Assembly (NCBI GenBank): GCA_036447375.1
Contig: JAZFUU010000009.1
Location: 1-59,294, forward strand
Direction: 5' to 3'
DNA: 59,294 bases
Origin: Myxococcota bacterium
GTDB taxonomy: Bacteria; Myxococcota_A; UBA9160; SMWR01
Shown here: piece after piece, positions 144 through 53,538 of the stretch
Layout: each line of letters begins with the position of its first letter
How positions within the stretch are numbered: position 1 is the first letter of the stretch
Translations under genes and position numbers: made by a program
The notes under the pieces: generated by a model
Told to the model about the DNA's origin: nothing
What the model saw: the letters and a program-made list of their open reading frames with translations, nothing else
The model's database searches: none

Positions 144-2273
144 TCAGAGGTCAGCGTCGCGAAAGACCCGCCCGTCTTCGATCCGCGCTACGGGTTGCGC
201 CGAATCGGGGCCTTCTTCCACCCACACGATCGCCGCCCCGCGGCTCGCTCGAAATCCCGCCGGCGAATCCTCGCTCAAGCTCTGCGTCCGGTAGCGATAC
301 TCGTCGACCACCAGCGTGCGAACGCCGGTTCCCTGATCGTAGGTCACGTCGTGGCGGCTGCCGTCCTTGGGTGACACCCATTCGTCGTCGCCGCGAGTGA
401 GTGCGGCGTACACCGCCTCGAGCAGCGGGTACTTCTCCATGGGCTGCCCGGCACGCCCGGCCAGGTCTTCTTCGATCAAACGCGGGGGCTGAGCAAAGAG
501 CGACTCGATACATCCATCTACGGCGACGTCGCACGCCTCCGTAGAAGACGAGAGCGCCAGCATTCGGTACAGCGCCTTGGGCTTGACGCGATGCCGACCC
601 TCCACACAACCCTCTGCCTCCAAGACCATGCGGCTGTGAACGCGGTTCAGCGCGCTCCGCACGATGTCCTCATCCGCGTCGACGATCATGACCACGATCC
701 GGGGGCCCGGTAGCGCGCACACGGCGTCCTCGTCGCGAATTCGCTGGCACAGACCCTCGTAGAAACGGTCGACGAAAGCGCTTCCGGCGTTGCCATCGAT
801 GAAACGGAACTCGTAGCCCACCAGATACAGACCCACCTTGGCCTTCCGCGCGAACTTTGTGCCCACGGCGATGTGTGCTTCCAGTCGATCGGGCTGAATT
901 CTTCGCGGTCCGAGTTTCGAGCGGGCCTTCTTGAGGTCGATCTCAGGCCAGGTCACGCTCCCCGGCCGACGAGCGCGAAGCAGCTGAACGGCACGAGCCG
1001 CCAGCTCATTGGGCTCGAATGGCTTCCCCACGATCTGGTCGCCGCCCACCATGAGGCAGCGCAGGCGCTCGCCCCCGCTCGACCGCCGAGAAGACAGAAA
1101 GAGAATCGGGACGTCCACCTTGTGCTCGCGCAACAACCGACACAATCCGATGCCGTCGAGACGGGGCATGGCGATACTCGTAATCAGCAGATCCGGCTTG
1201 GCCGCCGCTGCCGATCGAAGCGCCTGGAGTCCGTCGGCGGCCTCCGCGATTCGCACCGAGACATCCAACGTCTCCGCGACTTGATCCATGACCCGGGTGA
1301 CTTCGCTGCGTATCTTGGCATTGTCATCGACCACGAGCACCAGTACCCGAGATGACTGCTTGGAACCTGTGACACGCCGGGTTACGCGAGCCTCGGAAAG
1401 CACGGGCCCCTCGACATCCGCTGCGCGGCTCAGGACCAGGGAAGTCGCGCTGGGCGTGGCTTCCTGCCGATTCGGGATCGTGGCGACTGCGCTGGGCGGG
1501 GCTTCCCGCCGATCCAGGATCGGGACGGTCGCGCCAGGCGCGGCTACCAGCCGAAATCGTGCAAAAGGCCGCGGCGTAGGTTCAGGGGCCGGGGGGGGGA
1601 TCTGACGAACGCCGCCTGCTTCGATGCAGAACTCGAGCGGATGATGGGTGAGCTCGGCGTCGCCCATTCGGTGCAGGTGCATCCAGCGCGTGGTCTGTTC
1701 TTTGTCTCCCACCTCTCGGAGCAGCTGGAAGACGGTCCAGCAGACTTCGGAGAAGAGACGAAGCGAAAAGGGCTTGTGGGCGACGGCGTCGCTGGCGAGC
1801 AGCAGCGAGGTCCAGCCAAGCTCTCCGAAGCCGGTGCTGATCGCGCGCAGCTGATCGCGGAAGTCCGCCTCCTGCGAACAAGCGGACAGGAAGGGATCGA
1901 CCGGATCCAGGATGACTCGCCGCACCGCGCTCGGATCGGTTTCACCGCGAAGCTCTTCCATGACCGCCGCGACTCCCCGCTCGGCCACGATCTCTCCGAT
2001 CTGATCCTCGTACTCCAATAGGACGAGGCGCTCGTCGTCCACGTATTCTTCCAGGGAAAGGCCGAGGCTCTTCCCGAGCGCGAGCAGCTCCTCCGCCTTC
2101 TCCCGGCAGACGTACAGAACCGTCTCGCCCGCCTGCAGGCCGGCGTAGGCAAACTGGAGCCCCAGGACCGACTTGCCGGTGCCGCTGGCCCCGAAGCCCA
2201 GATGCGACTGGGACCGCTGGAACCCCGCGGGTCCGGAATCGAAGAGATCGATACCGGTCGCGACCGCCTCCAT
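144..2273 (-). CDS. KaiC/RecA-superfamily ATPase fused to an atypical (Asp-to-Ser) receiver domain and an uncharacterised C-terminal region
   Basis: 709-aa ORF with GGAGG 6 nt upstream of ATG 2273. The N-terminus has TGIDLFD..GASGTGKS (Walker A) and RRVILDPVDPF (Walker B-like), as in KaiC/RadA-type ATPases. A Pro-rich linker follows. The REC-like segment reads VLVVDDN...PDLLITSIAMPRLDG...ILFLSS...VGKPF. I cannot name a motif in the last ~270 aa; there is a possible degenerate GGDEF-like stretch. Confidence 0.85.
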   Translation of the reverse strand: MEAVATGIDLFDSGPAGFQRSQSHLGFGASGTGKSVLGLQFAYAGLQAGETVLYVCREKAEELLALGKSLGLSLEEYVDDERLVLLEYEDQIGEIVAERGVAAVMEELRGETDPSAVRRVILDPVDPFLSACSQEADFRDQLRAISTGFGELGWTSLLLASDAVAHKPFSLRLFSEVCWTVFQLLREVGDKEQTTRWMHLHRMGDAELTHHPLEFCIEAGGVRQIPPPAPEPTPRPFARFRLVAAPGATVPILDRREAPPSAVATIPNRQEATPSATSLVLSRAADVEGPVLSEARVTRRVTGSKQSSRVLVLVVDDNAKIRSEVTRVMDQVAETLDVSVRIAEAADGLQALRSAAAAKPDLLITSIAMPRLDGIGLCRLLREHKVDVPILFLSSRRSSGGERLRCLMVGGDQIVGKPFEPNELAARAVQLLRARRPGSVTWPEIDLKKARSKLGPRRIQPDRLEAHIAVGTKFARKAKVGLYLVGYEFRFIDGNAGSAFVDRFYEGLCQRIRDEDAVCALPGPRIVVMIVDADEDIVRSALNRVHSRMVLEAEGCVEGRHRVKPKALYRMLALSSSTEACDVAVDGCIESLFAQPPRLIEEDLAGRAGQPMEKYPLLEAVYAALTRGDDEWVSPKDGSRHDVTYDQGTGVRTLVVDEYRYRTQSLSEDSPAGFRASRGAAIVWVEEGPDSAQPVARIEDGRVFRDADL

Positions 2274-2535: not shown

Positions 2536-3624
2536 GTGAAGGCACTCGTCAGTCTCGAGCTCGACAAGTATTCCGTTGAAAACGTGACCCTGGATGGGCC
2601 CAAAGCCGGCGAACTGCGCATCCGAATGCGCGCGACGGGCGTCTGTCATTCGGATGTCTCGGTGATCAACGGCACCCTGCCCCTGCCCAAGCCCATGGTG
2701 CTGGGACACGAAGGCGCCGGAGTCGTCGCGGAGCTCGGTGAAGACGTCCGAGGATTCGAGGTCGGGGATCACGTGGTGCTGTCGTTCAATCCCACCTGTG
2801 GCAGCTGTCTGTCCTGCCGCCGCCAGGAACCGCAGTTCTGCAGCGTCGGCGCCCCGGACGGAAAAATGCTGGACGGCACTTCGCGCGTGAAGCTCGGTAA
2901 AGACGAACTCGGGGTGATGCAATTCCTGGGATGCATGGCCGAAGAAGCCATCGTGCCCGCGATCAGCGCCGTCGCGATCGACAAGTCGATCCCCCTGGAC
3001 AAGGCCGCCCTCGTCGGCTGCGGTGTGATGACCGGGGTGGGAGCGGTGATCAACACAGCGAAGGTCACGCCAGGATCGAGTGTGGCGGTCTTCGGCTGCG
3101 GAGGCGTTGGACTGTCGATCATTCAGGGGGCCCGGCTCGCCGGCGCCTCGCGCATCATCGCCATCGACCTGGCCGACAACAAGCTGGAAATGGCCAGGCA
3201 GTTTGGCGCCACCGATACGGTGAACGGCGGCAAGGACAATGGCGTTCTCCGCTGCAAGGAGCTGACCGGCGGCGAGGGTGTCGACTACAGCTTCGAGGCG
3301 GTTGGAATTCCGCAGCTTATGGCCGAGGCCAACGAAGCGGCGCGCCGCGGGGGCACGGTGACGATCGTGGGCGTGGGCAAACTGACGGAAAGCGTGCCGT
3401 TCAATGCGCTCATGCTCTCCATGTCCGGAAAGACCATCAAGGGTTGCTACTACGGCGACGGCAATGTCAGGGAAGACTTTCCCAAGCTCCTCGACCTGTA
3501 CCGGGCCGGAAGGCTCAACCTCGACGACATGGTGACGGCGACCTACAGCATCGACGAAGCGCCCCAGGCCATCGAGGACCTGCTGGGCAACAAGAATGCC
3601 CGCGGCGTCATCGTCTACGAATAG
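2536..3624 (+). CDS. Zn-dependent alcohol dehydrogenase (MDR family)
   Basis: GTG 2536 is preceded by GAAGGAG. Motifs are GVCHSDVSV..GHEGAGVV and the GCGGVGLS Rossmann motif. Length is 362 aa. Confidence 0.92.
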   Translation: MKALVSLELDKYSVENVTLDGPKAGELRIRMRATGVCHSDVSVINGTLPLPKPMVLGHEGAGVVAELGEDVRGFEVGDHVVLSFNPTCGSCLSCRRQEPQFCSVGAPDGKMLDGTSRVKLGKDELGVMQFLGCMAEEAIVPAISAVAIDKSIPLDKAALVGCGVMTGVGAVINTAKVTPGSSVAVFGCGGVGLSIIQGARLAGASRIIAIDLADNKLEMARQFGATDTVNGGKDNGVLRCKELTGGEGVDYSFEAVGIPQLMAEANEAARRGGTVTIVGVGKLTESVPFNALMLSMSGKTIKGCYYGDGNVREDFPKLLDLYRAGRLNLDDMVTATYSIDEAPQAIEDLLGNKNARGVIVYE

Positions 3625-3653
3625 CCGCGGTCGTAGCGGGCGCAGCCGATCCC

Positions 3654-6026
3654 ATGAACGGACTTCGCGGCATACGGGTCGTAGATTTCTCCAGCGAGAT
3701 CGCGGGGCCCTACTGCACGAAGCTCCTGGCGGACGCGGGGGCGGACGTCGTCAAGGTGGAGGACGCGGGCGGCGATCCGATGCGTCGCTGGACCGCCAGC
3801 GGGAGCGACCTGTCCGGTAGCGACTCGGCCCTCTTCTGCTTCCTCAATGCCGGAAAACGCTCGGTGGTGGGCGCTCCCGAAGATGCCGAGATTCTCGCGT
3901 TGATCGAGGGAGCCGATCTAGTGGTCGAGAGCTTCGAGCCCGGCCGCATCGATTCCCTGAATCTGCCCGCGCGATCGCCCGGTCTGGTGCTGCTTTCGAT
4001 CTCCTGGTTCGGTCGCGGCGGCCCCTGGACCCACCGCCCCGCCACCGAGTTCACGATCCAGGCCGAGTGCGGCTCGATCGGGATGCGGGGCCTCCCCGGA
4101 CGCGAGCCCTTCCAATGCGGTGGCCGTATCACGGAATGGGTGGGGGGCACCTATGCGGCGGTGGGCGCTCTGGCAGCGGTGCAACGCGCCCGTCGCAGCG
4201 GTCACGGTGAAACCGTGGATTTCTCCCTGCTCGAAGTGATGACGGTCGCCGGTAGCAACTACATGGATCTGTTCCACAGCCTGCTGGGTCGACCCGAGGC
4301 GGAGGGTCTGCCCCAGTCCGTCGAGTCCCCATCGATCGAACCGACGAAAGACGGTTATGTGGGTTTCTGCACCAACTCCCGGCAACAGTTCTCCGACTTC
4401 CTGCTGCTGATGGATCGCCAGGATCTGGCCGAGGACGGGGAGCTGGCCATGGTGCCCGGACGCATGGCGCGATTCGACGAGTGGAACGCGATCGTTCATG
4501 CCTACACCGAAAAACACACCACGGCGGAGATCATCGAAGCGGCTTCGCGACTGCGGATTCCCGTAGCGCCGGTCAACAGCGGAGCCACGGTCGCCGATCA
4601 CGAACAGATCCGCAGCCGCCGCGCCCTGGTCACGAACCCGACGGGGAATTTCTTGCAGCCGCGTCCCCCCTATCGGATCGACGACCGCGATCCGCCGCCT
4701 CCCCGGCCAACGCCGCAGCTCGGAGAGCACACCCACCAGATCGAACCCCGGGAATGCCAACGGCCCCGGGCCCAGGGGCCCGCTTCGCTCCCGCTGGAGG
4801 GCCTGCGGATTCTCGACATGACGGCGTGGTGGGCGGGACCGTCGGCGACCGGAATGTTGGCGGGCCTCGGAGCCGATGTGATCCACCTGGAGTCGACCAC
4901 CCGTCCGGACCACATGCGCATGGTCGGCGGCTTGTTTGCCGGAAAGTACGAGACGTGGTGGGAGTGTTCTCACTTCTTTCTGGCGGCCAACATCAACAAG
5001 CGAGGGCTGACCCTGGACCTGGCGAAGCCGCGGGGTCTCGAGCTGGTCCGAGAACTGATCGCGCACTGCGATGCCATCGTCGAGAACTTCACACCGCGGG
5101 TGATGACCAACTTCGGCCTCACCTGGGAGGCCGTGCAGGCCCTCAATCCCCGGGCCATCCTGTTGCGGATGCCCGCCTTCGGGCTATCGGGACCCTGGCG
5201 AGACAACACCGGTTTCGCCCAGACCATGGAGCAGATGACGGGTCTGGCTTGGCTCACGGGACACTCCGACGACCAGCCGCGCATCCAGCGCGGCCCCTGC
5301 GATCCGTTGTCCGGCATGCACGCGGCGTTTTCGTTGCTCGTCGCCCTGGCCCAGCGCGAGGCCACGGGCAAAGGCGTCCACGTGGAGTGCAGCATGGTCG
5401 AAGGAGCCCTCAACGCCGCCGCCGAGGCTCTGATCGAGTTCTCTGCCTACGGCCATCGGATGAACCGCTGCGGCAACCGGTCGCCCACGGCGGCACCCCA
5501 GGGACTGTATCCATGCCGCGGAAGTACGCCGGGTCGCGAACACTGGCTCGCGCTGTCGGTCGCCAGCGACGCCCAGTGGCAGTCGCTCAAGGAACTTCTG
5601 GGCCGACCGGAGTGGGCCGATGACCCGGCCCTCGCCAGCCTCGTCGGACGGCGCAGCGCCCACGATCGCATCGATGCCGCCCTGGCCCCCTGGTTCGCCG
5701 ACCGTGACCGCGAAAAGCTGGTGGGCGAACTCCTCAGCGCTGGGATCCCCGCAGCCCCGGTGGTGGACCCCCGCCTCACCAGCCGCAATCCTCAGCTCGT
5801 CGCCCGGGGTTTCTACGAAGAATCGAGCCATCCGGTTGCCGGCACCCATCCGATCCCGACGATGCCCTTCCGCTATGCCTCCGTGGATCGTTGGCTCCGC
5901 GAACCGGCGCCGACGCTCGGCCAGCAAAATGGCGAAATCCTGCGCGACCTGCTGGGCCTCGACGACACCGACATCGACGCGTTGACGGCCGAGGGCGTGA
6001 TTGGAACGCGGCCCGTGGGCTACTGA
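3654..6026 (+). CDS. Tandem-fused family III (CaiB/BaiF/Frc-type) CoA-transferase with two complete units in one polypeptide
   Basis: ATG 3654 lies inside the longer 2931 ORF, whose upstream part is an Arg/Gly-rich shadow of the ADH gene. Unit 1 runs GIRVVDFSSEIAGPYCTKLLADAGADVVKVE ... TPQLGEHT. Unit 2 runs LRILDMTAWWAGPSATGMLAGLGADVIHLE ... CDPLSGMHAA ... APTLGQQNGEIL. Confidence 0.88.
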   Translation: MNGLRGIRVVDFSSEIAGPYCTKLLADAGADVVKVEDAGGDPMRRWTASGSDLSGSDSALFCFLNAGKRSVVGAPEDAEILALIEGADLVVESFEPGRIDSLNLPARSPGLVLLSISWFGRGGPWTHRPATEFTIQAECGSIGMRGLPGREPFQCGGRITEWVGGTYAAVGALAAVQRARRSGHGETVDFSLLEVMTVAGSNYMDLFHSLLGRPEAEGLPQSVESPSIEPTKDGYVGFCTNSRQQFSDFLLLMDRQDLAEDGELAMVPGRMARFDEWNAIVHAYTEKHTTAEIIEAASRLRIPVAPVNSGATVADHEQIRSRRALVTNPTGNFLQPRPPYRIDDRDPPPPRPTPQLGEHTHQIEPRECQRPRAQGPASLPLEGLRILDMTAWWAGPSATGMLAGLGADVIHLESTTRPDHMRMVGGLFAGKYETWWECSHFFLAANINKRGLTLDLAKPRGLELVRELIAHCDAIVENFTPRVMTNFGLTWEAVQALNPRAILLRMPAFGLSGPWRDNTGFAQTMEQMTGLAWLTGHSDDQPRIQRGPCDPLSGMHAAFSLLVALAQREATGKGVHVECSMVEGALNAAAEALIEFSAYGHRMNRCGNRSPTAAPQGLYPCRGSTPGREHWLALSVASDAQWQSLKELLGRPEWADDPALASLVGRRSAHDRIDAALAPWFADRDREKLVGELLSAGIPAAPVVDPRLTSRNPQLVARGFYEESSHPVAGTHPIPTMPFRYASVDRWLREPAPTLGQQNGEILRDLLGLDDTDIDALTAEGVIGTRPVGY

Positions 6027-28791: not shown

Positions 28792-30564
28792 TCACTCGAT
28801 CTTGTCGAACTGGCGGCGCGAAGCGAGATCGTCCGGGTCGAGACGCAGGGCCTCCAGGAACAGGGCGCGCGCGCCGGGCAGATCGCCGCGCCGAACCTGG
28901 ATCAGGCCCAGGTTGCGCACCACTTCCGCGGAATCGGGTCGCAAGCGCCTGGCCTCGCCGAACGCGGCCTCGGCAGCGACGAGATCGCCCCGAGCCAGCA
29001 GCACCTTGCCGAGCCCGTGGTGCGCCCCGAAATGCTGCTGGCTCGAACGGATCGCGCCCCGATAGTGAAGCTCGGCGGGCTCCAACTGCCCCGCCTGGGC
29101 GTTCAGAACCCCGAGGTTGAAATGCGCCCCCGCGTGATCGGGCTCCGCCGCGAGGGCCGCCAGGAACGCGGCGCGGGCTTGTTCCGGACGCTTCAGAACC
29201 AGCAACACAGCTCCACGGGTCACCGCAATGTTGGCCGAGTCGGGACTGCCGCGCTGCGCCGCATCGTATTGCGCGAGGGCCTGCCCGAAGCGGCCCTCCT
29301 CGGCCAGAGCCATTCCCAGTGCGTGATGGGCGTCGGGCGAATCCGGGTCGAAGCGCAGCCACTGGCGGGCAAAGGTCTGGTCGTCGCGGAAGTACTGCGC
29401 CCGACCCAGGCTCACCCCCGCGGCGGCTAGAATCGCGCAGAGGCCGACGACTACGGCAAGCCTCCGCAAGCGCGGGTCGTGCCAGCGCGACGACACGAGG
29501 CCGGCGGCGATCGCCGGCAGGCCCAGGGTTCCTAGGAACGCGTAACGCTCCGCGAAGGGTGTTTCCTGCACGAGCCAGTTCGCCGTCGGGAGTTGGGTGG
29601 CGAGCATCCAGCCCAGCCAGAATCCGACGGCGCGGACGGGGGGGGCACCCACGCGCCGGCACGCCCCCGCCAGCGCGACCAGAACCAACGCCACCACAGT
29701 CAGCCGCCACGGCGAAATCCAGATCAGCAAACGGGGTTCGTACACGAGTTGCACGAACGGCACGATCGAAACCTGAAGCAGGTAGAGGTAGGAGAGAACT
29801 GGCAAGATGGGATCGCCGACCAGGGCGAGGCGAGTTTCGGTGTGCCCGGCCAGGGCGTACCGCACTCCGAGATAGATCAACAAGATGGCGACGCTTCCCG
29901 CATGACGCCTCGCCCAGAACCCGGGTCGGGCCATCGAGCCCGCCTCGGGCGGATCCGAACCCACGCGGCAAAGATCCGCCCATACGAACAGCAGCGGAAC
30001 GATCACGGACTGTTCTTTCGCAAAGATCGCCACCGCGAAGGCGGTGCAAGCGACGGCGCGGCGACCGCGCAGCCACGCGAGGGTCGCCGCGAGAATCAGG
30101 GCGCTGGCCAGTGCCGTATCTCTGCCCAGGATCGGATAGACACACGAGGAAGCGACCGGATGAAGTGCAAAAAAACCGGCGGCCCATGCGGCGGGAGTTC
30201 GGCGCACGTCGAACCCCCGACTGCGAAGCAACAGGTAGGCGAGCCAAGCCACCGCGCCCATCACCGCGATGTTGACGGCCCGGAAAGCCGCGGGAATGTC
30301 CCCGTGCAGCGCCTTCTGGCTCAGATACGAAGCCCGCATGACAGGCCGGTAGTACGGCAGACCCTTCACATGCGGCTCGCGGAACACCCGCGCGATGTCC
30401 GATAGGTTTCGGGGTCTCGGCTCGGAGACGATCACGCCCCGATCGTCGTAGACGAAGTCGTTGCCCAGAGAGGGCAAGTAGACCGCCGCGACGAGCAGGA
30501 CCAGCAGCCACCCGGTCGGAATCCCTCGGAGCCCTCGAGCCCAGGGCAGACGCCAAATTACCAC
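28792..30564 (-). CDS. Polytopic GT-C-like (PMT_2/TMTC-like) membrane protein with C-terminal TPR repeats
   Basis: The N-terminus has LPSLGNDFVYDD (a first-loop acidic motif) followed by ~10 hydrophobic segments. The C-terminal ~200 aa are TPR-like repeats (HHALGMALAEEGRFGQALAQY...). Confidence 0.8.
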   Translation of the reverse strand: MVIWRLPWARGLRGIPTGWLLVLLVAAVYLPSLGNDFVYDDRGVIVSEPRPRNLSDIARVFREPHVKGLPYYRPVMRASYLSQKALHGDIPAAFRAVNIAVMGAVAWLAYLLLRSRGFDVRRTPAAWAAGFFALHPVASSCVYPILGRDTALASALILAATLAWLRGRRAVACTAFAVAIFAKEQSVIVPLLFVWADLCRVGSDPPEAGSMARPGFWARRHAGSVAILLIYLGVRYALAGHTETRLALVGDPILPVLSYLYLLQVSIVPFVQLVYEPRLLIWISPWRLTVVALVLVALAGACRRVGAPPVRAVGFWLGWMLATQLPTANWLVQETPFAERYAFLGTLGLPAIAAGLVSSRWHDPRLRRLAVVVGLCAILAAAGVSLGRAQYFRDDQTFARQWLRFDPDSPDAHHALGMALAEEGRFGQALAQYDAAQRGSPDSANIAVTRGAVLLVLKRPEQARAAFLAALAAEPDHAGAHFNLGVLNAQAGQLEPAELHYRGAIRSSQQHFGAHHGLGKVLLARGDLVAAEAAFGEARRLRPDSAEVVRNLGLIQVRRGDLPGARALFLEALRLDPDDLASRRQFDKIE

Positions 30565-39353: not shown

Positions 39354-40856
39354 TCAGGGCTGGCGGATCTGTGCGATCTCTTCCGACAGCTGAAAGGCCG
39401 GATCGCCACTGGGTCGGTACGGTTCCGAATGGGCGATCTTCAGCAACTCGCCGCCCTGAAACCGCGTATTCGAGGAAATTCCGTTCAGCACCGCCGTGCG
39501 TTGGGGACCCCAACCGTTGCCCGTGCGCAGACCCAACGCGACGAGGTCTTCATCGGGCAGTGCCTTGACCACGCGCAGGCTCAATTGCCGAATGGAATTC
39601 CTCTCGTCCGGGGTCAGCGGGCGGAAGCTTCGCACGGTGTTGCGAGCGCGTCCCAGGAACTGGTCCGCGACCCGGGCCGGCGCGACCCCGGTCACTCGGT
39701 ACATCGAACCTTTGTAGGGAATGAAGGTCATCTCCGCCGCCAGGCTTTGTCCGCCAAGGACCGCCTCGACCCCGACCCGATACGCGTTCGCCGCGCGCAG
39801 CTGCACGTGCTGGGCCCGGGTCACCCGGAGGCCGTACTCCTTTTCGTGAGCCTGCACGAACTCCTCAGCGGCCAGCTTCGCGTCCCGCGCGACTCCGTGG
39901 CCCTTGAGAAAGATCACTGCGTCACCCCGCGGCGAAATCGCCCCCACCGCGACGTGGGAGTTCTGCGGGCGCCAGCCGTGGGGGAACTGGATGTGAAAAT
40001 CCAGGTCCGGGTGCAGGAACCGATCTCCCTCGAACACGCCCTCGGCGGGATTCACGCCGAGGGCGATTCCCTCGACGCGCGCCAGATACGCCGCCAATCC
40101 GGTCTCCACGGATGGATCGCGCCGCCATGGGATTGCGCGGGCCCGCGCCGCGCAGTCGGCGACGCGCTCGATCGTTCCCGGGTGGGTCGAAGCCAAGCTG
40201 GGCACCCGCGAGATACCCGAGACCAACCGTTCGACACCTCCCAGCCGCGACAGGAACGTGACCATCCCCGCGGGGTCATATCCCGCTTTGGCGGCCATCG
40301 TCTGACCTCCTTGGTCGGCGGCCCGCTCCTGGTCACGGCCGTAGGACGCCAGATTGCTCATTCGAACCCAGGGCAAAGTAAACGGATTTTGCCGGCGCGC
40401 GAACTCCTGCTGGGCGGCGGCGTGTCGGTTGGCGGAGTGGGCGATCTCGTGCCCCAGGACATTGGCGAGCTCGTCCTCTGAGTTGATCAGGGCGAGCAGA
40501 CCGCGAGTGAGATAGACGTACCCGCCGGGCAACGCGAAGGCATTGGGCTCGAACTGGTTCACCACCGAAAAGTGGTAGTCGAAGGAACGACGCGGTGCGT
40601 AGCGAACCAGGCGCTTTCCGATCCCCTGAACATATTTTACGAGCTCGGGGGAGTTGACGAGCCCAATCTGCTCCTGAACCTCCTTCGAAGCCTCCGTCCC
40701 GGCCCGCTCGTCGTGGAACTCGGTGGACAGCACCACGGTGCGCTTGCGCTCTGTCGGTTCGGGCTGGGTCCCCTTGCAGGCGATGGCCAGACCGGCGCAG
40801 ACGCCCAGACAGACGGCGAGGCGCAGGTAGCGACAGGAAAACCGTTGAAGACGCAT
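39354..40856 (-). CDS. M48-family Zn metallopeptidase lipoprotein with extended C-terminal domain
   Basis: ATG 40856. The lipobox is in LGVCAGLAIAC. The zinc motif is HEIAHSANRH (HExxH). The upstream part of the 901-aa ORF is an antisense shadow of the hydantoinase B gene. Confidence 0.85.
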   Translation of the reverse strand: MRLQRFSCRYLRLAVCLGVCAGLAIACKGTQPEPTERKRTVVLSTEFHDERAGTEASKEVQEQIGLVNSPELVKYVQGIGKRLVRYAPRRSFDYHFSVVNQFEPNAFALPGGYVYLTRGLLALINSEDELANVLGHEIAHSANRHAAAQQEFARRQNPFTLPWVRMSNLASYGRDQERAADQGGQTMAAKAGYDPAGMVTFLSRLGGVERLVSGISRVPSLASTHPGTIERVADCAARARAIPWRRDPSVETGLAAYLARVEGIALGVNPAEGVFEGDRFLHPDLDFHIQFPHGWRPQNSHVAVGAISPRGDAVIFLKGHGVARDAKLAAEEFVQAHEKEYGLRVTRAQHVQLRAANAYRVGVEAVLGGQSLAAEMTFIPYKGSMYRVTGVAPARVADQFLGRARNTVRSFRPLTPDERNSIRQLSLRVVKALPDEDLVALGLRTGNGWGPQRTAVLNGISSNTRFQGGELLKIAHSEPYRPSGDPAFQLSEEIAQIRQP

Positions 40857-40988
40857 GGAGGACGACCAGTGTATCGAACGCACACGCCGCTGCTGACAGC
40901 AGGGCCGGTTTTCTGCTAAAACGGTTCGATCTGACGCTCCGTCAGAAATCGCCTGGATCCGCCGAGGAATCCACGTGGAGAAGATCCG

Positions 40989-42800
40989 ATGAGCTACGAG
41001 CTGAATCGACGTCTCGCGGCAAAGCGCCCTCCCCTCGAAACCTCCGCGGAGGTTGATTCCGTCAGCGCCGGGATCATCCGCGGAGCCTTCGAAACCATCT
41101 GTTTCGAGACCGCCATCCATCTCGGCCGCGCTGCGTCGTCGGCGATCATCAACCAATCCAACGAGCGCGATGCCAGCATTATCGATTCCCACGGTCGACT
41201 CGCGGGCCTTTCGGTGGGAATCCCGCAGCTCCTCTTCATATCCCCCCTGGCCGTGCGCTGGGGACTCGAGCACTACGAAACCGACGACTGGGGCCCCGGC
41301 GACGTTTTTCTCGGCAACGATCCCGACCACGGCGGGGGGCATCTGCCCGACTATACGGTGTATGTGCCCTGCTTCGACTCGGCCGGCGAACTCGTCGCCA
41401 TCCAGGCGCTGCAAGCGCACCAGGGTGATACGGGAGGCAAGGATCCGGGCGGTTTCTCCGTGGATTCCGTCGACATCTTCCACGAGGGCCTGCCGATTCC
41501 GCGACTCAAGCTGGTTCATCGCGGCAAGCGCAGAGCCGACGTGCTCGATCTCCTGATTCGCAACAATCGCCTCCCGTCCTTTGCCGGAGACATCGCCGCG
41601 ATGATCGGCGCCTCGGAGCTCGGTGCGAACCGAATCGATGAGCTGGTGACAAAATGGGGTACAGACACGGTTCGCGCTGCGATGAATTTCAACATCGCGG
41701 AGACGGAGCGCCGCTTTCGAGGCGAAGTGCAAAAGTGGCCCGACGGCGACTACGAGGCGGACGTCTGGATCGACCACGATACGGTCGGCAACGAAGACGT
41801 GCGGGTTCATGTCAAGTGCAGCGTCGAAGGCGATCAGCTCACCGTGGACATGACCGGGAGCGATGACCGTCCCGAGCTGGTGAACGTCTGGAATACGTTC
41901 TCGAACAGCCGCGGCTACGCGATGGCCCAGCTCGTATCGATGGTCGATCCCACCATCGTCAAGAACGAAGGCCTCTTCGACGCGGTCGACATGATCATTC
42001 CCGAGGGCACGATCGTACAGCCGCCGCCCAACAAACCGGCTGCCCTCGGTGCCTTCCACCCGGCTTGCGAAATTGCCGAGGCGATCTGCATCGCCCTCTC
42101 GCAGATCCTACCCGAGCGCTCTTCGCCGCAGGTCTACAAGCTCGGCATGCCCAACTCCGTCATCGGCTTCGATGCCGGCGGACAGATGTGGATGGATCAA
42201 GGCGTGGATGTGCGGGCCTCCGACGCATCGGCCACCCAAGGGATCGACGGTTGGGGATCGATGTGCAGCGGTCTCGGCAATCTGCTCCTCGCCCAGGCCG
42301 AGGATGCGGAGAGTCGCTTCCCCGTCATCAACCTCGGCCGCGAGATGACCTGCGATAGCGGCGGCCCGGGCCGCTGGCGGGGGCAACCGGGAACCCTCAA
42401 TGTGAAGAAGGTCCTGGAGCCCACCATGGCCGTCGCCTGGATGGTCTCGATGAAGCACCCCTTGCGGGGGCTGCGCGGAGGGGACGACGCTTCCGCGTAC
42501 AGCAACCATTTCGAGGTGGGAACGCCGAACGAGTACAAAATCGAAAACTCGGTGCGCGCCGACCTTCCCGCCGGAGCCGTGTGTGCGTACCAATACGGTG
42601 GCGGTGCCGGCTTCGAAAGCCCGCTTCTCCGCGACCCCATCGCCGTGCGAGAGGATGTGCTCGATGAATACGTGAGCGTAGAGGCGGCTCGCGAGCGCTA
42701 CGGCGTCGTGCTGACGGGGACGGCGGAGGACTGCAATGTCGAAGTGGACACGACGGCAACGCAGCAGCTCCGCAAGAGACTCGCAGCCGAGCGGGGGTGA
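40989..42800 (+). CDS. Hydantoinase B / oxoprolinase family protein
   Basis: IIRGAFETICFETAIHLGRAASSAIINQSNERDASI..GDVFLGNDPDHGGGHLPD is typical HyuB sequence. Confidence 0.9.
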   Translation: MSYELNRRLAAKRPPLETSAEVDSVSAGIIRGAFETICFETAIHLGRAASSAIINQSNERDASIIDSHGRLAGLSVGIPQLLFISPLAVRWGLEHYETDDWGPGDVFLGNDPDHGGGHLPDYTVYVPCFDSAGELVAIQALQAHQGDTGGKDPGGFSVDSVDIFHEGLPIPRLKLVHRGKRRADVLDLLIRNNRLPSFAGDIAAMIGASELGANRIDELVTKWGTDTVRAAMNFNIAETERRFRGEVQKWPDGDYEADVWIDHDTVGNEDVRVHVKCSVEGDQLTVDMTGSDDRPELVNVWNTFSNSRGYAMAQLVSMVDPTIVKNEGLFDAVDMIIPEGTIVQPPPNKPAALGAFHPACEIAEAICIALSQILPERSSPQVYKLGMPNSVIGFDAGGQMWMDQGVDVRASDASATQGIDGWGSMCSGLGNLLLAQAEDAESRFPVINLGREMTCDSGGPGRWRGQPGTLNVKKVLEPTMAVAWMVSMKHPLRGLRGGDDASAYSNHFEVGTPNEYKIENSVRADLPAGAVCAYQYGGGAGFESPLLRDPIAVREDVLDEYVSVEAARERYGVVLTGTAEDCNVEVDTTATQQLRKRLAAERG

Positions 42801-51331: not shown

Positions 51332-51361
51332 TTAACACCCTTGCCCAGCGGATATGATAAT
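51332..51361 (+). promoter_or_regulatory. Putative sigma70-type promoter for pqqC
   Basis: TTAACA (51332-51337) - 18 nt - GATAAT (51356-51361), 65 nt upstream of the pqqC ATG. These are AT-rich boxes in otherwise GC-rich DNA. Confidence 0.3.
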
Positions 51362-51425
51362 CTGCCATTCGCCCAGAGACAGCGAGTCGTATGGGTCAGG
51401 CCCACGAATCACGGAAGACAGGAGC

Positions 51426-52154
51426 ATGGGCGACCCCACCGCACCGGCCTGGACCCGCGAGGAATTCGAGCGCGAGCTGCGTTCGCTGGAGCGCCTCTAC
51501 CACATCCACCACGAGTTCCACGAGCGGATGGACTCGGGACAGCTCGACCGCGAGGCCCTCCGCGGTTGGGTGGCGAACCGCTTCTACTACCAGGTCAACA
51601 TCCCGCGCAAGGACGCCGCGATCCTCGCCAACTGCCCGGACCGCGATGTCCGGCGCCTCTGGGTTCAGCGCCTCCTCGACCAAGACGGGCGGGACGGCGA
51701 AGGAGGGATCGATGCCTGGATCCAACTGGGCGAGGCGGTGGGACTCTCCCGCGAGGAGCTCTGCTCGCACGAGCACCTGCTGCCCGGTGTCCGCTTCGCC
51801 GTCGATGCCTACCTGAACTTCGCGCGCCGGGCCTCCTGGCAAGAGGCGGTGGGCTCGTCGCTGACCGAACTCTTCGCGCCGGTCATCCACCAGCGACGCC
51901 TCGACAACTGGCCGCGGCACTACCCGTGGATCAAGCCCGACGGCTACAACTACTTTCGGCGTCGGCTGGGCGAGGCGCACCGCGACGTGCAGCACGGACT
52001 CGAGCTGACCCTCGACGGGTGCCGAACTCGCGAGAAGCAGGACCGCACGATCGAAGTCCTGCGCTTCAAGCTCGACATCCTCTGGACGATGTGCGACGCG
52101 ATGTGGCTCGCCTACGTCGAGAAGCGGCCCCCGTATCATGGGACACGCGCTTAG
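51426..52154 (+). CDS. pqqC: Pyrroloquinoline-quinone synthase PqqC
   Basis: ATG 51426. [48 protein letters not shown]...[23 protein letters not shown] is typical PqqC. Length is 242 aa. Confidence 0.92.
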
Positions 52155-53257
52155 GAATCATCCGGGGCTGCTTTTCCGAAATGCCGGTACACGAACGGCG
52201 GCGGCACTGCGCCGGACTCGGCCTCGGCGAGGGCCACGACCTCGGCGTGGCGGGGAGAGAGCTCGCAGGCCGGATCCGTGTTGGCCGCGTCGCCGGTCAA
52301 GGCCAGCGCCTGGCAGCGGCAGCCCCCCCAGTCCAGCTCGCGTCGTTCGCAGGATCGACACGGATCCGGCATCCACTCGGTTCCCCGGAAGCGTTGAAAT
52401 GCCGCCGAGTTTTCCCAGATGTCGGCGAGGCGGCGCTCGCCTGCGCGCTCGAAGCGCAGGTCCGGAATCGTCTCCGCGGCATGGCACGGCAGCACCTTGC
52501 CGCTGGGTGTGATGTTCAGGAAGCGCCGGCCCCAGCCTCCCATGCAGGCCTTGGGGTACCGCGCGTAGTAGTCGGGCACCACGGTGTCGATCACGAGTAT
52601 GCCCTTCAAACGCTCCGCGGCCTTCGCCAGCACTTCTGTCGCCCGCTCGAGCTGCGCCCGGGTCGGCATGAAGGCGGCCCGGTTCGCAAGTGCCCAGCCG
52701 TAGTACTGAACCTGGGCCACTTCGATGCGGCGGGCGCCGACCTGCACGGCCAGATCCAGGACCTCTTCGAGGCGGTCGATGTTCCCGCGGTGCACGACCG
52801 CGTTCAGCGTGAGCGCGATCCCCGCTTCGCGAACCCACCGGGCCGCCACCAGTTTTTTGGCGTGGGCCCCCGCAGTTCCGGCGATGCGGTCGCCCTCTTC
52901 GCCGCGGGTGTCCTGGAAGCTGAGCTGCACGTGCTCGAGTCCCGCGCGGCCGAGCGTATCCACCATCGCGGCGTCGAAGAGAACACCCGAGGTGATCAAG
53001 TTCGTGTACAAACCGACGCGGGTCGCGTGGCCCACGAGCGACACGAGGTCCGGGTACGCCGTGGGCTCACCGCCAGAGAAATGCACCTGTAGGATTCCGA
53101 GCTCCGCGGCTTCGTCGAGGATCCCCTTCCAGGCATCCGCGGAGAGCTCGGAGCTGGCCTTCTCGAGTTCCATTGGGTTGTAGCAGTAGGGGCAACGCAG
53201 CGGGCAGCGGTGGGTGAGCTCGGCGAGGAGGGCCAGCGGGGGGGCGGGCGCGTTCAT
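52151..53257 (-). CDS. pqqE: PqqA peptide cyclase PqqE (radical SAM/SPASM)
   Basis: [19 protein letters not shown] is the CxxxCxxC motif. A C-terminal Cys-rich SPASM region is present. There is an ATGA overlap with the pqqD stop. Confidence 0.93.
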
Positions 53258-53538
53258 GCGTCGAGGATTCGCTTGTCCGCGAGATCTTGCAGGAGGTGAG
53301 TGACGTCGGTCTGGATGCGGTCGCAGGGGGCGTCGAAGCGTCGGCTGAGCTCGTCCGAGATCGCCGAGACGGTGCGCTCGCCGTCGCAGCGCTTCAGCAC
53401 CTCCACCGCAATCTCATCGGGCAAAATCAGGCGTTCCGGTGCCAACAGGACCCAGCGCTCTCGCTTCTCGTCGAAGCGGAAGCGCACATGCGGCGCCAAG
53501 CGCGGCACCGAAGCCGCCCCGATGAAGGTGCGTTTCAC
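53254..53538 (-). CDS. pqqD: PqqA-binding chaperone PqqD
   Basis: 94 aa. PRLAPHVRFRFDEKRERWVLLAPERLILPDEIAVEVLKRCDG is a typical PqqD pattern. It lies directly upstream of pqqE. Confidence 0.9.
   Translation of the reverse strand: MKRTFIGAASVPRLAPHVRFRFDEKRERWVLLAPERLILPDEIAVEVLKRCDGERTVSAISDELSRRFDAPCDRIQTDVTHLLQDLADKRILDA

Follow-up and report, generated by a model that had tools for sequence, protein, structure and literature searches.

A minus-strand gene on contig JAZFUU010000009.1 of a Myxococcota bacterium (GenBank assembly GCA_036447375.1) encodes a 709-residue protein that joins, from the N-terminus, a KaiC/RecA-type P-loop ATPase domain, a receiver-like domain, a GGDEF-like domain and a conserved C-terminal domain. 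The whole 59,294-nucleotide stretch analyzed is referred to here as the window. We propose, at a probability of roughly 50%, that this cytoplasmic four-domain protein is a cyclic di-GMP (c-di-GMP)-responsive, ATP-dependent receptor switch, a reading that draws on sequence comparison and on analogy with known receptors. The evidence that carries it lies in the GGDEF-like domain, where the three residues of a primary c-di-GMP-binding inhibitory site (I-site), R513, D516 and R544, are shared by all 27 relatives while the position of the cyclase signature varies freely. The protein is a member of a rare, uncharacterized family of uncultured Myxococcota: searching 5.8 billion proteins, we recovered 28 relatives that have the KaiC domain, the receiver and the same tail, 27 of them full-length, at 39–92% identity. 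All conservation figures given below refer to an alignment of 27 sequences, in which ~14% of columns are invariant overall. The invariant fraction is highest in the C-terminal module (24.5%), followed by the ATPase domain (18%), the GGDEF-like domain (13.9%), the receiver (7.8%, the lowest of any folded domain) and the linker (2.5%).

A degenerate GGDEF domain retains the residues of the primary I-site

The tail of the protein (residues ~440–709) has no match in Pfam, and the Pfam GGDEF family (PF00990) gives no hit to it at E ≤ 1. The fold is nonetheless recognizable. An AlphaFold model of the tail has a mean predicted local distance difference test score (pLDDT) of 77, with values of ~80–90 across the first half, the GGDEF-like part. 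When this model was compared with the PDB using Foldseek, GGDEF domains made up all 50 matches listed, the best being DosC (4zvf; E 2e-6, probability 1.00, TM-score 0.63 relative to the target). A profile of the tail gives weak matches in the PDB, to GGDEF domains only, that place the family's "xxxRLVA" on "GGDEFTV", and it also reaches genuine GGDEF proteins in a 1.84-billion library. We checked the register of the domain with a MAFFT alignment of the family and four genuine GGDEF domains. In this alignment, PGPRI takes the position of the GG(D/E)EF signature, where other members and clades carry ADHRI, SDKRI, SEKRL, DERRL and others. The stretch that corresponds to DxDxFKxxNDxxGH reads GYEFRF-x-D-G, which is degenerate and ~7 residues shorter. 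Judged by these residues, the domain is catalytically dead and not a cyclase.

The I-site tells a different story from the signature position. Five residues upstream of that position, at the canonical I-site location, R513-D-E-D516 forms an RxxD motif. The primary I-site consists of RxxD (R359 and D362 in PleD) together with a further arginine, R390 (PMC7288161). In the window protein, R544 lies 31 residues past R513, on the conserved arginine of the following helix; because the spacing from R359 to R390 in PleD is likewise 31 residues, we assign R544 as the third primary I-site residue. Four degenerate relatives at a greater distance (P0100, P0104, P0134 and P0138) have kept RxxD as well. The degenerate GGDEF domain thus appears to keep the residues of a c-di-GMP-binding pocket, and binding of c-di-GMP itself is predicted.

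Table 1 Features of the 709-residue protein and of the operons linked to its relatives.
Feature	Residues	Nucleotides	Strand	Basis and remarks
Complete coding sequence	709 aa	144..2273	-	Stop codon at 144-146
KaiC/RecA-type P-loop ATPase domain	1-228	1590..2273	-	Pfam PF06745 and family profile
Walker A, GASGTGKS	28-35	2169..2192	-	G28, G31, G33, K34 and S35 invariant in 27 relatives
KaiC catalytic-glutamate pair, R57-E58	57-58	2100..2105	-	First Glu replaced by Arg, second retained; each conserved 26/27
Walker B, VILDPVD		1896..1916	-	Aligned to KaiC motif; D123 invariant in 27 relatives
S175-E176 on KaiC CII "hiST" dipeptide	175-176	1746..1751	-	Domain 2 alignment to 8zn5_B; invariant
Variable linker	229-308	1350..1589	-	~30% Pro+Ala; 43-173 aa across family
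Pseudo-receiver domain	309-436	966..1349	-	Pfam PF00072 and PDB alignments
Ser366 at acceptor Asp position (CheY D57)	366	1176..1178	-	HMMER alignment, family column
Degenerate GGDEF domain	~456-606	456..908	-	Foldseek, profile, MAFFT
GYEFRF on DxDxFKxxNDxxGH stretch		801..818	-	MAFFT alignment
RxxD of predicted I-site	513-516	726..737	-	Invariant 27/27
PGPRI at GG(D/E)EF signature position		696..710	-	MAFFT alignment; catalytic site lost
R544, predicted third I-site residue	544	642..644	-	Invariant 27/27
C-terminal alpha+beta domain (~100 aa)	608-709	147..452	-	AlphaFold model; most conserved part
pga/ica-like cluster, locus L022		5749-11106		Downstream of family gene
pga/ica-like cluster, locus L001		12381-17567		Downstream of family gene
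pga/ica-like cluster, locus L004		6939-10472		Downstream of family gene

The KaiC-type ATPase domain keeps its nucleotide-binding motifs

The N-terminal domain matches the Pfam KaiC family over residues 4–225 (86.2 bits against a cutoff of 26.6, E 2.9e-24), and the family profile matches KaiC structures across the full domain length at E 5.5e-35. Both comparisons describe a single-domain ATPase and not the CI–CII duplication. With every key residue of Walker A and the Walker B aspartate invariant across the family, ATP binding by this domain looks secure. The catalytic-glutamate pair that follows strand 2 in KaiC is altered, its first position being an arginine. At a separate site, the KaiC CII dipeptide "hiST", which we take to be the S431/T432 autophosphorylation pair, aligns with the invariant S175-E176; here a glutamate, E176, holds the threonine position. 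S175 would be a better candidate phosphosite than Ser366 of the pseudo-receiver, as a lead only.

The ATPase is followed by the Pro/Ala-rich linker, whose start carries a FARFR motif (nucleotides 1551-1565, minus strand). F237 and F240 in this motif are invariant and R241 is nearly so. FARFR may be a docking or tail motif.

The receiver has lost its phospho-acceptor aspartate

Residues 312–427 match the Pfam Response_reg family at 72 bits against a cutoff of 30.2 (E 5.7e-20), and the receiver domains of PhoP response regulators (PDB 1mvo and 3r0j) match the domain at E 1e-15 to 1e-16. Because the HMMER alignments to 1mvo and 3r0j set PDLLITSIAMPRLDG on PhoP PDLIVLDVMLPKLDG, Ser366 occupies the position of the phospho-acceptor aspartate. 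Across the family this column holds alanine (12/27), serine (8/27), glycine (4/27) or histidine (3/27). Since it never holds aspartate, the domain is a family-wide pseudo-receiver, a receiver fold that by its residues is unable to take a phosphoryl group on Asp. In the clade of the window protein (clade A), seven of eight members have serine at this position, and the eighth, P0004 (64% identical), has glycine. The remaining receiver landmarks, D316/D317 in VVDDN, S394 in ILFLSS and K417 in VGKPF, correspond to D12/D13, T87 and K109 of CheY. The acidic pair and the lysine are retained in clade A and progressively lost in most other clades.

The C-terminal module is a new domain with stand-alone relatives

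The last ~100 residues were modeled by AlphaFold using an alignment that included stand-alone relatives (pLDDT 92.8, predicted TM-score 0.85). In the model, a helix leads into antiparallel strands and a further short helix. A fold search of the PDB yielded no significant neighbor (best E 0.57, TM-scores < 0.36), and the module family has no match in Pfam, PHROGs, NCBIfam or PADLOC. The C-terminal module is therefore a new, previously undescribed domain. Its many stand-alone relatives are 93–127 residues long and share with it the motif R-Y/F-x-x-Q-N-P ... S ... A ... G-A-x-I-x-W-V ... G-R-I/V-E-D-G.

The best fold match of the module in a viral library is an uncharacterized Caudovirales protein (E 0.02, probability 1.00, TMq 0.63). 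In a scan of viral contigs that used an alignment of the stand-alone proteins only, one stand-alone relative was found on a 295,848-bp IMG/VR viral contig of jumbo-phage size (L021 4001-4312). The same relative lies on a 117-kb contig (L019 8001-8330), among dozens of tiny unannotated open reading frames (ORFs) and genes for uracil-DNA glycosylase (UDG) and a staphylococcal nuclease-like protein (SNase). The contig that carries it looks like a jumbo phage. A tblastn search of 50,697 deposited phage genomes with the module found nothing. We also considered whether the protein is a component of a defense system and rejected this, as PADLOC matched neither the 709-residue protein nor its relatives, neighbors or stand-alone module proteins.

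Much of the domain layout had been anticipated in a preliminary description made from the DNA sequence alone. It had called a single ORF of exactly this extent, a KaiC/RecA-type N-domain with Walker A and B motifs, a Pro/Ala-rich linker and a receiver fold with serine for the acceptor aspartate, and it had placed VVDDN, ILFLSS and VGKPF at D12/D13, T87 and K109; profile searches and HMMER alignments agree on each. The GGDEF-like pattern without GG(D/E)EF that it noted proves to be a genuine GGDEF fold. The domain matches are likewise in keeping with its general picture of a KaiC-type ATPase and a pseudo-receiver in a single chain, plausibly a nucleotide-driven switch. Its statement that the last ~150 residues could be matched to nothing holds for the final ~100, but the ~50 residues before them belong to the GGDEF-like domain. 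The intact I-site, the parallel to BcsE described below, the operon linkage in relatives and the separate C-terminal domain with stand-alone relatives go beyond that description.

Family distribution and phylogeny

A search of 1.84 billion cluster representatives with the tail profile gave ~12 family clusters at 50% identity. The few relatives that carry a source name are all labeled as Myxococcota or Deltaproteobacteria metagenome-assembled genomes (MAGs). Among 185,579 species genomes we found 12 loci, 11 in MAGs titled Myxococcota, Myxococcales or "Deltaproteobacteria" and one in a "bacterium". In a midpoint-rooted neighbor-joining tree, clade A is sister to all other lineages, and the lineages linked to a polysaccharide operon (see below) are paraphyletic to the unlinked clade C.

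NCBIfam returned only generic receiver and KaiC-type partial matches for the 709-residue protein, all far below equivalog cutoffs. A full-text literature search found no paper on a KaiC–receiver–GGDEF protein and no characterized member. The family fits best within the degenerate-GGDEF receptor class, as a variant that has a BcsE-like architecture and one new domain.

Three more distant proteins, P0100 (522 aa), P0134 (637 aa) and P0104 (275 aa), combine KaiC, receiver and degenerate GGDEF domains without the C-terminal module. P0100 is a singleton in the 5.8-billion-protein collection, and a wider search gave generic receiver matches only. The acceptor position holds aspartate in P0100 and P0134 and glutamate in P0104. 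Because P0100 and P0134 retain it, the loss of the acceptor aspartate would seem specific to the four-domain family.

Relatives in three lineages lead a pga/ica-like exopolysaccharide operon

In three of the five family lineages, a polysaccharide cluster lies directly 3′ of the family gene. The full gene order is seen at L001/L011, L004, L009, L010, L013 and L022; contigs L008, L023 and L024 are truncated after one or two of the downstream genes. On the same strand, the family gene is followed by genes for a 620–660-residue tetratricopeptide repeat (TPR) protein, a 435-residue family 2 glycosyltransferase (GT2) and a 67–75-residue single-pass peptide that ends in a basic tail. The GT2 is 76–89% identical across loci and has five predicted transmembrane segments. 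Its best NCBIfam match is PgaC_IcaA (TIGR03937; E 7e-65, nearly the full profile), below the equivalog cutoff. Most of the complete loci encode a further protein of ~600 residues, which in L022 passes the Pfam threshold for polysaccharide deacetylases. Genes overlap by 4 bp at junctions in several loci. As far as can be told from its genes, the parts list resembles a pga/ica-type synthase-dependent exopolysaccharide system.

In clade C, a GlcF-like gene stands upstream and a gene for a 150-residue M10-like protein downstream of the family gene. Since the tree places clade A as sister to the rest and the linked lineages as paraphyletic to clade C, the operon linkage is old but cannot be shown to be ancestral to clade A.

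Comparison with known systems

The closest parallel is BcsE of E. coli. Its N-terminal domain is predicted to have a RecA-like ATPase fold, modeled on KaiC, with a degenerate Walker A motif. Next in the chain come a degenerate receiver and a GGDEF domain, also degenerate, that binds c-di-GMP via RxxD and is most like that of PelD. The first gene of the bcsEFG operon encodes BcsE, which docks on BcsF, a short membrane peptide (PMC7439463). The order of RecA-like, receiver and GGDEF domains and an I-site RxxD on the last of these are common to BcsE and the Myxococcota family, with c-di-GMP sensing itself known for BcsE. BcsE, moreover, belongs to a synthase-dependent polysaccharide system and its operon includes a short single-pass peptide; the clade-B relatives stand at the head of a comparable cluster, with the TPR protein, the PgaC-like synthase and the 67–75-residue peptide. 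The two differ in that BcsE has a degenerate Walker A motif and probably binds no ATP, while both Walker motifs are invariant in the Myxococcota family. The latter also has the extra C-terminal domain, its partner synthase is PgaC-like and not BcsA-type, and the window's copy adjoins no synthase operon. Membership of the BcsE/GIL family (PF10995) was tried and rejected: there is no Pfam GIL hit, and an hhalign comparison of the family alignment with E. coli BcsE gave a probability of 0.06 and E 0.77.

PelD, too, uses a dead GGDEF domain with RxxD as a c-di-GMP receptor and activates a synthase-dependent polysaccharide system, but it sits in the membrane, has a GAF domain and lacks the ATPase and the C-terminal module. 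PopA of Caulobacter, a c-di-GMP receptor that works through RxxD, combines receiver domains with a degenerate GGDEF domain. It also lacks the ATPase and C-terminal module, and its first receiver is of the phosphorylatable type. PleD shares with the window protein, beyond the I-site spacing (R359/D362/R390 and R513/D516/R544), a non-phosphorylatable adapter receiver directly upstream of the GGDEF domain. PleD differs from the window protein in that it retains GGEEF and cyclase activity, its first receiver accepts a phosphoryl group, and it lacks an ATPase domain.

KaiC and the single-domain KaiC-like ATPases, such as archaeal ArlH, GvpD, PH0186 and SSO2452, have the same RecA-superfamily fold and KaiC-type motif layout as the N-terminal domain. 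The likeness to KaiC itself includes a Pfam match far over threshold and the placement of S175-E176 on the CII phosphosite dipeptide. The window protein departs from KaiC in its single ATPase domain, in R57 at the first catalytic glutamate and in the lack of KaiA/KaiB partners in the listed neighborhoods. In the literature searched, its fusion to a pseudo-receiver, a degenerate GGDEF domain and a new domain has no characterized counterpart among KaiC-like ATPases.

Proposed mechanism and alternatives

In the mechanism we propose, c-di-GMP would bind the I-site of the degenerate GGDEF domain through R513, D516 and R544, as in BcsE, PelD and PopA. The ligand may also tether this domain to the adjacent pseudo-receiver, much as the GGDEF domain and adapter receiver of PleD are joined. 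Once bound, the ligand would alter how the KaiC-like ATPase assembles or which nucleotide state it adopts, and this ATPase may autophosphorylate at S175, which is invariant. The conserved C-terminal domain would then engage partner proteins as the signal output. In the three linked lineages, the partner would be the translationally coupled pga/ica-like machine composed of the TPR protein, the PgaC-like synthase, the single-pass peptide and the deacetylase, making the protein a c-di-GMP-sensing regulator of polysaccharide secretion.

Several observations weigh against this proposal. RxxD and the helix arginine are common in GGDEF domains generally, so their conservation could be partly structural or inherited. 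KaiC's first catalytic glutamate is replaced by R57, and ATP turnover may therefore be slow or absent. Sequence comparison detects no homology to BcsE, which leaves the parallel architectural only. Finally, the polysaccharide operon is not adjacent to the gene in clade A, to which the window protein belongs, or in clade C.

The strongest competing explanation, possible although we judge it clearly less probable than a c-di-GMP receptor, is a KaiC-like ATPase hub that does not sense c-di-GMP. The pseudo-receiver and the degenerate GGDEF domain would then be inert scaffold or dimerization modules, and control would be exerted by ATP binding, hydrolysis or autophosphorylation (S175 being one candidate site) together with protein partners of the C-terminal domain. 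The ranking of conservation fits such a hub, with the ATPase and C-terminal domains as the two most conserved parts and the pseudo-receiver as the least, as does the position of S175-E176 on the KaiC phosphosite pair; conservation of RxxD, moreover, can be partly structural in GGDEF folds. What a hub does not account for is that none of the three primary I-site residues varies, whereas the remainder of the former active site has drifted. To our knowledge, every well-studied degenerate GGDEF domain with an intact RxxD, that of PopA included, binds c-di-GMP. BcsE and PelD, both degenerate GGDEF proteins with intact RxxD, do so (PMC7439463). An active diguanylate or other nucleotide cyclase, regulated by the ATPase and receiver, is the least credible of the readings considered: the GGDEF fold is present, but its signature has been replaced by PGPRI and by other residues in other clades, the DxDxFKxxNDxxGH stretch is degenerate and shortened, and Pfam recognizes no GGDEF domain.

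The preliminary description had speculated that the KaiC-type ATPase acts as a kinase on Ser366 and thereby switches the pseudo-receiver. KaiC-family proteins autophosphorylate on Ser/Thr, and the CheY D57N mutant can be phosphorylated on the neighboring Ser56. Clade A, moreover, retains D316, D317, S394 and K417 along with its nearly uniform acceptor serine. We nevertheless find this very unlikely. The acceptor is alanine, glycine or histidine in 19 of 27 relatives, including the glycine of P0004 within the same clade, and a serine in only 8 of them cannot be the family's mechanism. Most other clades have also lost the metal-binding aspartate pair and the lysine, the pseudo-receiver is the least constrained domain, and the ATPase is set apart from it by a linker of highly variable length. 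A KaiC-type timer or clock component, by analogy with Kai systems and their pseudo-receiver partners KaiA and CikA, fares slightly worse. Pseudo-receivers occur in clock proteins, as the preliminary description pointed out, and the best sequence matches of the ATPase domain are KaiC structures. The ATPase is single-domain and not CI–CII, however, no KaiB or KaiA family occurs in any of the neighborhoods for which Pfam families were listed, and in three lineages the gene sits in a polysaccharide operon. A c-di-GMP receptor remains the reading that we prefer.

The gene and its surroundings in the window

The gene is monocistronic in the window, where genes were called by a GC3-minus-GC2 score. 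On one side lies the end of a convergent epimerase gene (nucleotides 4-114). On the other is a divergent gene for a Zn-dependent alcohol dehydrogenase (ADH; 2536-3624, plus strand), followed by one for a ~790-residue double CoA-transferase (family III); the pair spans 2536-6026 on the plus strand. The same arrangement is found at the clade-A relatives L005, L006, L007 and L012. Across clade A, the ADH is 86–92% and the CoA-transferase 77% identical; the family protein there is only 52–68% identical (L005, L007). A promoter search at the gene found no sigma-70-type match, and a terminator search found one terminator-like site, a number within chance expectation. A sub-threshold Rfam match to chrB-b (206-285, plus strand; 23.5 bits against a gathering score of 36.5, E 0.053) lies inside the coding sequence on the opposite strand, and we discarded it as probably due to chance.

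The preliminary description had called this the only regulator-like gene in the window. Consistent with that, a non-exhaustive screen of 32 window ORFs (30 by Pfam, plus the ADH and the CoA-transferase) revealed no transcription-factor or signaling domain. Elsewhere in the window, amid mostly enzyme genes, are a 901-residue protein with an M48 peptidase domain (39354-42059, minus strand) and a 590-residue TPR protein (28792-30564, minus strand). A tblastn comparison of the latter with the clade-B TPR partner gave no match at E < 1e-5. At 51354-53538, a TENA/THI-4/PQQC-family gene (266 aa, plus strand) is divergent from a 368-residue ORF, followed by a PqqD-family gene (94 aa). Together, the TENA/PqqC-like gene, the 368-residue ORF and the PqqD gene look like a maturation trio of the pyrroloquinoline quinone (PQQ) type or the type that acts on ribosomally synthesized and post-translationally modified peptides (RiPPs).

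Implications

Receptors for c-di-GMP that are built on a degenerate GGDEF domain, BcsE, PelD and PopA among them, act as key switches in the cell cycle and in the secretion of biofilm polysaccharides. The present family defines, in addition, a strongly conserved new domain of ~100 residues that has no structural relative in the PDB and occurs in stand-alone versions. Because the family is rare and comes only from uncultured Myxococcota, the practical impact will be modest until a member is studied.

A bolder version of our proposal, which we regard as rather unlikely in its entirety, is a c-di-GMP receptor with a still-functional RecA/KaiC-type ATPase coupled to a machine for a polymer like poly-N-acetylglucosamine (PNAG), representing an ancestor-like form of BcsE with an output domain shared with a jumbo-phage-like element. 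If the ATPase works, c-di-GMP binding would be linked to a cycle, driven by ATP or based on autophosphorylation, that controls the assembly or activity of the PNAG-like machine. The output domain would be an undescribed fold that such an element also encodes in free-standing form, possibly to interfere with the same pathway. The family would then resemble an ancestor-like survivor of the BcsE architecture, and the BcsE module a degenerate relic.

BcsE carries a relic of a KaiC-like ATPase and a dead receiver. The Myxococcota family has the same domain order, with its ATP-binding motifs under selection. It may thus offer a testable model of the ancestral BcsE-type regulator, in which an ATPase or autokinase cycle would be tied to c-di-GMP sensing.

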